From: Lingula anatina | Taxonomy: Eukaryota > Animalia > Brachiopoda | Length of the DNA stretch: 64,000 bases | Direction of reading: 5' to 3' | Assembly: GCA_051362555.1 (NCBI GenBank) | Contig: CM120646.1 | Location: 12,028,001 to 12,092,000, forward strand | Part shown: in pieces, positions 51,539-64,000 of the stretch | Layout: every line of letters starts with the position of its first letter | Numbering within the stretch: position 1 is the first letter of the stretch | The notes under the pieces: model-generated | Told to the model about the DNA's origin: nothing | Database searches by the model: none | Seen by the model: the letters and a program-made list of their open reading frames with translations, nothing else | Position numbers and translations under genes: made by a program

Positions 51539-52704
51539 TTAATCCCACTCAGCATCATCGTCGGGATCCAGAAGTTCCTGTATGCCATATACCCAACGTT
51601 CCACCGAGTATGCGTCCGAGTGAACGAAATAGTACTTCTTTCGCCCCACGTCTATTACCATGCCTGAGTTTTCTGGTGAATAAAGAATACGAATTTCTCA
51701 TATAGTGTCGGGAATAGAGATATTTCACATAATAATAATACATGGAGGAAAAATAAATACAATACAATATTTAGTACAATACAATACAATACAATACAAT
51801 AATGTACAGTTCGCAATTTTCTTCTTAACAATTTAGTAATTTTTTACTGGAAATTATAAATAATTTTCATTACAGAAAATTAATTACCTCCATCAGTGGC
51901 AAAGTCGGCGGAAATGATCTTGTTCAACTTCAGACTGCTCCTGTACAGGTTCTCCCGCGGGCCCCAGACTAGCCGGATGCCTTTTGGTAGCTCCTTGGCT
52001 TTTCCCGGCAGAAGAAGTCGCATGTGAACCGGGCTCAGCTTACCATCCACTTGTTTAGAAAGATGGCCCCCTTAAAACAAGAAAAAAACTCTTCAGAATA
52101 CACACAAAAGAAGGAGGTTATCACTGATTAAGGAGTAACCTAGGGTTAATTTCACAATAAATAAATAAATAGATAAAAATAAAAAAAATTAATAAGACTC
52201 GGTTGATGCATGAGAATGTTTGACTCCCTGTGGTCAAATTTACACGTGTGTATCATAGTGTTAGATCAACTGCGCATTTATTACGAAGTAGACTTTTACT
52301 AATTTATTTATTTATCAACTTGTTTATTTGTTTGTTTCTTTTACCAATTCGTTTGCAAACATTGTACCGTTCATAAAACTCGCTCTCAGATTTCATATTG
52401 CATGAAGGCATGACGGTCTGCTCAAAGCAGAGATAGATGTAATTTGGACAGGAAATCAAACTTCTGTCATCAGCTACGAATGATTAGGCTGTCAGGTTTG
52501 CTAAATATATGCTGTTAGATAAACGGTTCTCGTAAAAAAAAACAACTGACCTCCTTGCAGTTTCAGCACGTTCGGGGAATACGGCATAGAGGACAAAATG
52601 GCACGAATCTCCTGTGTTGTGGCAATGTCAAACTTCATCTGACTGTAATATTCCTTCAGTTTCTTCATGCCAGCGCTGTACTCGTCCTTATTCAATGTCG
52701 ATAT
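51539..52704 (-). CDS. Three terminal PKS exons encoding a putative PH-like domain
   Basis: The spliced translation is ISTLNKDEY...[110 protein letters not shown]. All junctions are GT-AG with matching phases (0,1,1). Confidence 0.75.
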
Positions 52705-61700: not shown

Positions 61701-64000
61701 CACACTGCAAGCTAACAATATATTAAAATAAGTACTGCTACATGTACATGTACCTGCGTCTTATATGAAAAGGTGATTCTTGTATAGGACTATGATTTAC
61801 ACAATGATGAACCATCTTTACGTTATTCAGACCATTTATGGATTATGTGCGTGCATGTAGCCTATATTTGTTTAAATACCATGGACCGAAAGGCCATGTT
61901 ATGAATAAATGATTGAAGGAATGCTTAATTACTATATACCTGAAAAACCATATTCAAATACATAACAGTATGCTAATCACTGTGGTACTATAGGCACACA
62001 AAAACGCAAATTACATTCATTTTTTTTTGTTGTTGTTGTTTAAAGAAAGGAAAGACAGAAAATTGTAAAACTCACATCTTTCAGTCTCTTCATGATAACC
62101 ATGCCGCAGCCTTCTCCTCTAGCGTACCCATCCGCGTCTGCGCAGAAAGCCTGGCATTGTCCTTTGGCCGACATCATTTTGGCACGACACAGGGGAACGA
62201 AGTTTTCCGGCGTCATGATGAGGTTACATCCCCCTGCTATTGCCATTGTACACTCACCTGCGAGAGAAGAGGGAAGAAATTGGAAAGGCATTTATTTGTG
62301 ATGAAAATATAATGGCAAATCACCTAATTACAGGTGTTAGCTTTCCAGTATTTATTGGATTATTTAATAAATTCAAACGGGCCATTTTTCTTTTCCATTA
62401 CGCAAGACTCTAGAACGTTCTGTAGAATATTTTTCGATATCAGCTCAGATAGATTTGAAAATCTAAAAGAAAACCTGTCAAAATGTAGAGAAATATTGCT
62501 AATATACACAGTTCATACATTCAAGACTTTTTCGTTTATCTTCTAAACAATTGTGCGACCTGATGCCGCATGACCTAGCAGAGGAAGACGTCAATTCCGC
62601 AAAATCTAAGCTCCCCTTAAAATACTGTGGCAATACCTTGTAAAAAAATAATGCTGCTTACCTGTTCTCAGAGCTTGCGCGGCGAGATGCAGTGCCACCA
62701 TAGCCGAGGAACAGGCCGTGTCCACACACAGCGACGGTCCCTGGAGGTTGAAGGTGAAGGACACACGATTGGCGGCAATGCTGTTGGAACTGCCTGTAGG
62801 GGCGTGGTGATTGATCTCTACCAGGTCCGCGTTCACGAGGGCGCTGTAGTCGCTGTTCATGATGCCTGGAGTATTGAAATTTATATTTCATCCATCCCTC
62901 ACTTGTCGAGTTAGAAGTTTATGGTCAGAGGATTTAATCCCTTATAAATCATTGTTTTATTAGCGACTTAAAAAACCTTAATTTTAATTACATATGTAAA
63001 ATTGTATAAAGCTAGTTAAAAGGAACTTTAATTTACGACCCTTTATACTGACAGTTAAAGAAAATAAGAGTTCCTCTTGATGATTCATTATTAGTTAAAC
63101 CATTTAAGAAGCATATTTTAATTTTACTATAAGTGACAATCGTTTTTTAAATAAAGATCCAAATTATTTAATTTTTAAGGTGTTATTGATGTAATCGGTT
63201 CATTGGTTTGAATCATTCTACCCTGACATGTATTTAAATTGTATTTAAAAAAGCCTTTTATAATTTTTTTATTCAGTTTTCAGGGGCGTAACCAGGCATA
63301 CGCACGGATGCACTGTGCGTACAATTTTTTGAGCCAACCATGATATTATTCTCCATTAATTTAGTGTATTTTTCAAGGAATATAATCGTACCTGGGAATT
63401 TTCAAAATCTATGCGTACAATTTTTAAAGGTCTGGTTACGCCTCTGGTTTTCTTCAACCAGCTTATTCAAATATGCTCACCAAGGTACACGCCCGTAGTG
63501 CTACCAAATATGTCCTCCCGAGTGATTCCTGCATTCTCTAGGGCCATATAGACACATTCCAGCACCATCGCCTGCTGGGGGTCCATACGCTCCGCCTCGG
63601 CGTCGTTGATCATGAAGAAGCGGTTGTCCCAGGCGTCGTGACTGTAAAATTTGAATATATACAGGAATTAACAAATCGTTTTACAATTGAACAGTTTCGT
63701 TCTTACGAGGATATTTATTTGACGGGATTTTTTGAAGTTGTTTTCAAATTATTTTGAGTTTTTTTTTTCAAATCTAGATACATAAACATTCCCCACAATT
63801 TTCTAGCTTAGTGATTATTTTACCTTCAAAATTTGAAGAAATTTTAATGGGAATTTTTATTTATTCATCCATAATATATGGATATATAAATTTACTTATC
63901 TACATATTTGTTTGTTTATTTGATTTGAGTATACAAAATACATTTTCATGTTACTGTAAAAGATACTCACTGCTGAACAAATGCCGCTTGCTTCACGTAA
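51539..64000 (-). CDS. Type I animal polyketide synthase, KS-AT-DH-psiKR-psiER-KR-ACP-C(condensation)-PH-like; 5' end outside the window (~2860 aa visible)
   Basis: Phase-consistent exons: >64000-63971, 63641-63481 (MDPQQ), 62865-62662 (KS DTACSS), 62257-62076 (DGYARGEG), 61483-61309 (EAHG), 60871-53511, 52704-52551, 52070-51888 and 51672-51539. Motifs: KS HGTGT and KTNIGH; AT GHSVG (~59950) and [16 protein letters not shown] and HPALID; KR GGLTGLG, VLDD and [17 protein letters not shown] (55377-55388); C domain HHMVFD (54774-54791). Confidence 0.95.
51757..51801. repeat. (AATAC)n pentanucleotide microsatellite in the last PKS intron
   Basis: Directly visible. Confidence 0.85.
63281..63446. 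mobile_element. Short MITE (hAT-like) in a PKS intron, candidate 5 bp TSD gtttt
   Basis: gtttt|caggggcgtaaccag ... ctggttacgcctctg|gtttt. Confidence 0.75.

Follow-up and report, generated by a model that had tools for sequence, protein, structure and literature searches.

A gene on the minus strand of a 64,000-nt stretch of the Lingula anatina genome (Brachiopoda; GenBank assembly GCA_051362555.1, contig CM120646.1, positions 12,028,001 to 12,092,000 of the forward strand; hereafter, the window) encodes a polyketide synthase (PKS) with the domain order KS-AT-DH-psiKR-psiER-KR-ACP-C-linker-PH. The core of this protein, from the ketosynthase (KS) to the acyl carrier protein (ACP), is followed by a condensation (C) domain of the nonribosomal peptide synthetase (NRPS) type and, at the very end, by a pleckstrin homology (PH) domain. 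According to our preferred reading, to which we assign a probability of about 0.5, this is a spliced and expressed enzyme that would build polyenes iteratively, release them via the C domain onto an amine or alcohol, and be placed by the PH domain at a membrane or a partner protein. An earlier note made from the bare sequence (the original prediction) had described a spliced, intron-containing animal type I PKS with intact KS, AT, DH, KR and ACP motifs, psiKR and psiER, no thioesterase (TE), an NRPS condensation domain behind the ACP, and a charged linker followed by a PH-like domain. All these calls were borne out by the analyses described below.

Nine exons of the gene lie in the window, and all eight joints between them are present in RNA reads. 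The longest single frame comprises 2474 codons (53463-60887) and has short exons on either side. The last eight exons, from 63641 to 51539, are bounded by AG acceptors and GT donors and join into one open frame of 2850 codons with its sole stop at the end, and one more exon, from 63971 upward, was identified from the RNA reads and continues past the window end. By comparison with homologs, the N-terminus of about 70 amino acids lies mostly beyond the window. The transcribed segments are the following:

63971-64000, minus strand: KS exon running off the window end, with the start codon outside the window (joint 63641-63971 in runs X7, X8, X9 and X2).
63481-63641, minus strand: KS exon (Pfam ketoacyl-synt, E 2.5e-15; RNA joints).
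62662-62865, minus strand: KS exon with the catalytic Cys (DTACSS; Cys 62713-62711) (Pfam, frame, RNA joints).
62076-62257, minus strand: KS exon (Pfam, RNA joints).
61309-61483, minus strand: KS exon with the first catalytic His at its end, the HGTGT motif being split by an intron (Pfam, frame, RNA joints).
53511-60871, minus strand: exon of 7361 bases, from the C-terminal part of KS to the basic linker (continuous RNA depth in X7 and X9; Pfam).
52551-52704, minus strand: tail exon, helical segment into the start of PH (RNA joints, frame).
51888-52070, minus strand: tail exon, first PH strands (RNA joints; homolog-tail alignment and profile).
51539-51672, minus strand: last coding exon, with the final PH strands, the C-terminal helix with its Trp, and the stop TAA at 51541-51539 (RNA joints; homolog-tail alignment and profile).
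50800-51538, minus strand: likely 3' untranslated region (RNA depth reaching at least 50800, the edge of the stretch mapped).

The RNA evidence comes from six of the nine runs under the species label, with 6% of runs X1, X2 and X4 read. The joint 53511-52704 bypasses an in-frame stop at 53463 and was crossed by 20 reads in X7 and 8 in X9, and the two further tail joints by 19 and 16 reads in X7 and by 7 and 11 in X9. The five 5' joints had 4-9 reads each in X7 and 3-9 in X8. One tail joint was seen in X1 and one 5' joint in X2, each with 2 reads, and none in X4. Thus, expression of the gene differs among samples. A main transcript that ends at the 53463 stop without the downstream exons, an outcome already considered in the original prediction, is ruled out by the 20 joined reads in X7 against a depth of about 25 beside the joint. 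A minor form that retains the intron after 53511 may nonetheless exist; a repeat in that intron draws foreign reads. Most of the reads are 90-99% like the window and, therefore, stem from a population that carries the same species label but has diverged. Among the read differences displayed (40 of 678 for the tail-region mapping, 40 of 99 for the 5'-region mapping), those in coding sequence were silent in 30 of 31 cases in KS, in 9 of 12 in the three tail exons and in 4 of 8 in the linker. Because of the 9 silent differences among the 12, compared to 4 of 8 in the linker, the tail exons look protein-coding and constrained. The gene is encoded by the host, as indicated by its spliceosomal introns, its animal neighbours and the poly(A)-selected RNA reads; bacterial contamination or a recent transfer is ruled out by the introns, the animal neighbour genes and the position of the protein in an animal clade (see below). 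Dispersed repeats located in the PKS introns (about 52850-53420, and 63190-63450) attract many reads from other loci.

Pfam recognized KS, AT, DH, KR, ACP and Condensation in the protein, and no TE, ER, methyltransferase (MT) or PH match at E<=0.1, with the window exons scanned singly. The catalytic motifs are intact throughout, namely DTACSS, HGTGT and NIGH, GHSVG and SAFHSHH, the His and Asp motifs of DH, LDD and the Tyr of KR, GMDSM, and HHMVFD. The protein, therefore, has the KS-AT-DH-KR-ACP series with catalytic residues that is canonical for animal type I PKSs. The domains carried by the long exon are arranged as follows:

59313-60215, minus strand: AT domain (GHSVG, Ser 59954; SAFHSHH) (Pfam Acyl_transf_1, E 8e-62).
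58188-59105, minus strand: DH domain (DH His motif; HPALID Asp motif) (Pfam PKS_DH_N and PS-DH).
56337-58187, minus strand: psiKR (about 58040-57420) and psiER (about 57400-56470), inner borders approximate and taken from the model (AlphaFold model, structural alignment).
55788-56336, minus strand: KR domain (GGLTGLG, LDD, catalytic Tyr 55892) (Pfam KR, E 1.3e-53).
55254-55457, minus strand: ACP (GMDSM, Ser 55379) (Pfam PP-binding, E 3e-9).
53853-55145, minus strand: NRPS-type C domain, HHMVFD at 54791 (Pfam Condensation, E 4.6e-23; PDB matches are NRPS C domains).
53511-53852, minus strand: poorly conserved linker with a Lys/Arg-rich end (19 basic and 7 acidic residues in the last 57) (homolog comparison, composition).

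For the stretch from DH to KR, a phmmer search against PDB gave nothing useful by sequence. An AlphaFold model of 55680-58187 (pLDDT 80.7, 33-row alignment) found its best Foldseek match in the DH-ER-KR region of mycocerosic acid synthase-type PKSs. This model aligns over 705-722 residues with the mycocerosic acid synthases, compared to about 410 with KR didomains, so that the region contains an ER fold as well as a psiKR. At the loop where the ER-like fold is expected to bind the nucleotide, a position judged from the model, there is no glycine-rich motif of the kind that we take to be typical of NADPH loops, and a glycine pair is kept at this loop in just two lancelet rows of the 33. The model thus supports a psiER, an ER-like fold devoid of the glycine-rich NADPH loop.

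By the motif rules for AT (SAFH) and KR (LDD), the AT would load malonyl-CoA, and the KR would be of the B type and, followed by the DH, would yield trans double bonds. By analogy with MuPKS, no enoyl reduction would take place, and iterative malonyl extension would end in a conjugated polyene acyl-ACP. The C14-C18 polyenes made by MuPKS, the budgerigar enzyme, are due to an inactive ER (PMC6334511; PMC11739604), and vertebrate KS-AT-DH-KR-ACP enzymes belong to the same animal clade (100/100) as the window PKS. Alternatively, the product could be a short, partly reduced or branched polyketide, or a chain saturated via a trans-acting ER, that serves as a signal, a defence compound or a mineralisation nucleator. 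The programming of iterative PKSs is unpredictable and a trans ER is possible (PMC6334511), and medaka OlPKS, which has the same core, is required for otolith mineralisation (PMC4604110). However, the characterised bird enzymes with this core yield polyenes, and the window showed no gene for a partner ER; we regard such products as very unlikely.

Because there is no TE, the C domain is the sole release-type domain in cis. In a word-index search with the C-domain region, just bacterial NRPSs were found, with 19-25% identity, among the best 120 of 282 matches. An AMP-binding or a second carrier domain, as in PKS-NRPS hybrids, was not found in the window PKS by Pfam. In an alignment of 53 animal C domains, the full HHxxxD motif is present in the window PKS and in Saccoglossus, and the Asp is kept in all 53. 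Given the full motif, acyl transfer by the C domain is plausible: it would pass the chain to a free amine or alcohol, resulting in an amide or an ester.

The tail of the protein was assigned through its homologs, many of which, among the invertebrates, have a C-terminal segment of about 105 residues alignable to the window tail. With a profile of 13 homolog C-termini, the window tail scored 27.3 bits, compared to 2.7 for the best of 1000 shuffles, and HHalign matched it to the homolog tails with 95.4% probability (E 1.7e-8, 91 columns; reversed control 0.1%). Pfam PH families match the homolog tails weakly (PH in 4 of 12, best E 1.6e-5 for PH_12), and none of the 12 reached the curated PH cut-off. 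The best PDB sequence matches of these tails are PH domains as well (E 0.013-0.2). The tail of a lancelet homolog folds with a pLDDT of 93.4 into the seven-strand sandwich closed by a C-terminal helix that characterises the PH fold, and its listed Foldseek matches are PH-fold proteins. The best structural match is the N-terminal PH domain of PLC-gamma1 (Z 15.4, rmsd 1.5, 101 residues), and the next ones are phosphoinositide-binding PH domains. An Atlas model of a Mytilus homolog gave TM scores of 0.67-0.75 to PH-type models. Thus, the window tail, which the profile ties to the family and for which the folds come from homologs, is assigned to the PH family. An Atlas search with one 60-aa exon gave no usable match. 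Where the original prediction had looked to profile hits for both C and PH, Pfam supplied the former, and the latter was recognized via the homolog-tail profile only. Surveys may have overlooked the PH domain because it lies under the Pfam cut-offs and often behind an intron.

The C-PH end is family-wide. The closest relatives in a search with KS-AT are animal PKSs of lancelets, scallops, a limpet, a chiton, an acorn worm, fish and frogs (39-47% identity), and KS is 52-58% identical to the scallop, limpet and chiton homologs. With KR-ACP-C-linker as the query, a full HMMER search yielded many single-module relatives among the best 150. Altogether, the PH domain is carried by 18 of the 49 C-bearing animal homologs examined (14 from the first search and 35 from the second), in one case partially. 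This count is a lower bound, given that P0388, an unspliced open reading frame, terminates immediately ahead of a PH domain that is found in its spliced cluster mates P0268 and P0387. Among 408 proteins compared, 24 score at least 15 bits with the PH profile, 16 of these being profile seeds, and the next best protein scores 2.9; all 24 are PKSs or PKS fragments. The carriers are found in scallops, three Mytilus species, Sinanodonta, Patella, Liolophura (partial), Saccoglossus, Glandiceps and Branchiostoma, so that the KS, Condensation and PH combination for which the original prediction proposed a search indeed exists in bivalves, a limpet, a chiton and acorn worms. Glandiceps P0317 shows the same KS...ACP-C-PH order as the window PKS, and the most window-like tail is that of a lancelet (E 1.7e-6, 27-protein set). 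An architecture unique to the window animal is ruled out by these homologs. Neither C nor PH was found in any of the 12 vertebrate-type proteins scanned, and a search with the PH alignment for longer proteins, a weak one that covered 192-2000 aa only, returned none at E<=0.01.

Among the records P0388, P0253, P0263, P0278, P0287, P0316, P0318, P0321 and P0369, several end just past a Gly-Lys or Gly-Glu near the start of PH beta1. Such ends would be as expected from read-through into a phase-1 intron near the 52551 intron of the window. Two further homologs, P0213 (scallop) and P0215 (limpet), have tandem C-C-PH ends, and the first limpet C domain lacks the second His.

Several observations weigh against release by C and placement by PH. 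The second, catalytic His of the C motif is kept in 21 of the 53 aligned domains and absent in 32; therefore, C may be a non-standard amide former in much of the family. Vertebrate relatives produce polyenes without any C domain, and no product has been reported for any family member in the literature searched. Annotated homologs from Pomacea, Haliotis and Mactra and one Liolophura copy end after C without a PH. The PH assignment of the window's own joined tail is a profile score, not a fold. Furthermore, this PH has a Lys at the end of beta1 and an incomplete K-x(n)-[KR]-x-R motif, presumably the motif of phosphoinositide-binding PH domains across beta1-beta2, and mollusc PH domains have a GWxH loop in place of it.

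The C domain could, accordingly, be a non-amidating relic or scaffold in an enzyme that releases free polyenoic acids, as MuPKS does, or relies on a trans-acting transferase, with C and PH serving in docking or regulation. The C-terminal condensation domain of LovB is a precedent for such a role. Apart from the 32 domains without the second His, this idea fits the tandem C-C forms, the lancelet copies without C, the sister lancelet paralogs that differ in having the tail, and the vertebrate enzymes that work without C. It is at odds with the full HHxxxD of the window copy, the invariant Asp, and the retention of C in molluscs, hemichordates and the window animal, and we consider it unlikely. 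The C domain of TwmB is reported to be active even though its second His is a Pro (PMC11731387).

In the preferred reading, the PH domain and the Lys-rich linker would place the enzyme at a membrane or a partner protein, the membrane recruitment put forward in the original prediction being one candidate form of such placement. Instead, the PH domain might fold back on the synthase or bind a regulator as a switch, with the chemistry unchanged. The basic beta1-beta2 motif is partial in the window and absent in molluscs, the net charge of the PH varies between -1 and +13 in 16 homologs, and the PH domain of GRK2, a protein-binding one, is among the top sequence matches, all of which would suit a switch. 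Nevertheless, the closest fold is the N-terminal PH of PLC-gamma1 followed by the phosphoinositide-binding ones, the motif is fuller in the lancelet copies (K...[KE]RxVR), and the window PKS has an added Lys-rich linker. Such a switch thus appears distinctly improbable.

The evolutionary placement was derived from a tree of 942 KS-AT-KR columns with 28 rows (22 animal and 6 bacterial; FAS, AFPK, fungal and echinoderm rows absent); a 65-row tree was built with a quick method only. The 22 animal PKSs form one clade (100/100) apart from the bacterial PKSs, with full support for each of the four groups within it (molluscs, hemichordates, lancelets, vertebrates). The window PKS is a separate lineage that does not fall inside the 100/100 mollusc clade in the 28-row tree and is sister to it at just 78/76, a position that would suit a non-mollusc invertebrate host. 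The best tree follows animal phylogeny. An invertebrate-only clade was not rejected (p-AU 0.375); that vertebrates lost C-PH is, accordingly, no more than a suggestion. Sister lancelet paralogs differ in the presence of the tail. The homologs P0207, P0141 and P0142 (Saccoglossus and lancelets) contain an adenylation core directly before PH, with no carrier domain following, and the window PKS is devoid of this core. The homolog cores match none of the six motif patterns that we take to define adenylation cores. From these sequences, we infer that the family probably descended from a PKS-NRPS hybrid in which the adenylation core decayed and which has a eukaryotic PH at its end. More speculatively, and in our opinion somewhat doubtfully, this would be an ancient bilaterian PKS-C-PH family in which targeting of a signalling type is linked to secondary metabolism, with PH recruiting the synthase to a membrane or a receptor-linked partner and C releasing polyene-acyl amides or esters, as lipid signals or mollusc shell polyene pigments, the vertebrate otolith and parrot-pigment PKSs being truncated descendants without C and PH.

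If the PH domain is functional, the place or timing of action of this synthase could be set as in a signalling enzyme, and a functional C domain would provide a built-in release step that vertebrate PKSs lack. How vertebrate PKSs release their products is described as an open question (PMC6334511). The PKS-C-PH family occurs widely in farmed bivalves. Neither the chemistry nor the genes of mollusc shell polyenes are reported to have been assigned (PMC4930200), and pks genes, which may or may not be C-PH members, are upregulated in purple nacre (PMC12652611). Because of its full HHxxxD and its read-supported gene model, the window copy is a good member of the family to express first.

Nothing suggests a biosynthetic gene cluster around the PKS. 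The original prediction placed the PKS next to Mox. A homeobox exon that we take to be of the Mox type is indeed present (19196-19450, minus strand), with a likely first exon about 10 kb upstream (29719-30195, minus strand). However, it lies beyond the direct neighbour, a spliced Ldh_2-family oxidoreductase gene (37895-49425) downstream of the PKS on the same strand. Three exons of that gene match Pfam Ldh_2, and more exon pieces are located at 46303-46464 and 38405-38665. An intron of the Ldh_2 gene harbors a broken LINE-like element (39460-41738, plus strand) with an RVT_1 match, further frames and a strong AT skew. Frames at 43841-44906 (plus strand) presumably represent a broken Tc1/mariner transposase; 44598-44903 has no Pfam match. 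At the other end of the window, two convergent, related single-exon frames of about 330-340 aa (1499-2530, plus strand, and 3075-4058, minus strand) were observed, the second with weak Ig-domain matches and the first with none.

Among known systems, the C-bearing PKSs of molluscs are the nearest counterpart. Lin 2024 reported mollusc PKSs with and without C domains and with few introns, near the 5' end (PMC10764717). The window PKS shares with the C-bearing ones the KS-AT-DH-KR-ACP-C order, with Condensation behind the ACP and no TE, and the few 5'-clustered introns, but it has a full HHxxxD and three 3' introns and does not belong to the mollusc clade. The terms 'pleckstrin', 'PH domain' and 'PH-like' were not found in the parts of that publication searched, including 11 of its 18 supplements. 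In Table 2 of Hojo 2015, lancelet and acorn worm PKSs appear with C and AMP domains and no PH, and Saccoglossus LOC100373061 (P0207 here) is tabulated there without a PH (PMC4604110). These proteins have the same core as the window PKS; in contrast to it, the Saccoglossus and lancelet copies contain a degenerate adenylation core before PH, and the lancelet PH copies examined lack C. The original prediction that PKS-C enzymes are mainly fungal was, therefore, too strong, with mollusc (PMC10764717) as well as lancelet and acorn worm (PMC4604110) PKS-C proteins in print. Its statement that no synthase with this domain combination had been described does not extend to the homologs with C and PH found here, and holds insofar as no PH-bearing PKS or FAS was found in the literature searched, which mostly excluded subscription journals, so that absence is not proven.

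The vertebrate enzymes MuPKS (budgerigar), GgPKS (chicken), ApPKS (duck) and OlPKS (medaka) have the same KS-AT-DH-(inactive ER)-KR-ACP core but end at the ACP, without C and PH; they are themselves absent from the tree, which includes vertebrate enzymes of that type. For MuPKS and GgPKS, polyene products and an inactive ER were reported (Sabatini 2018, PMC6334511; PMC11739604). The animal fatty acid synthases (FAS) and FAS-like PKSs (AFPKs; EcPKS1/2) share the iterative type I layout with a psiKR. The window PKS differs from FAS in having no active ER and no TE, and it is not closer to FAS than to PKSs: the family profile scored 1069 bits for mycocerosic acid synthase, 732 for porcine FAS and 664 for EcPKS1. 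FAS has a TE, and FAS and AFPK genes are intron-rich throughout (PMC10764717).

Like the window PKS, TwmB and LovB are reducing PKSs in which an NRPS-type C domain comes last and no working A-T module is present; unlike it, TwmB has a Pro at the second His (PMC11731387). Both of the fungal enzymes have an MT domain and are not known to have a PH, and N-acylation by TwmB and a relic-type C domain in LovB mark the two roles weighed above for C. The PKS-C core as such is already known from animals, though uncharacterised; what is new in this family is the C-terminal PH domain, which protostomes and deuterostomes have both conserved.

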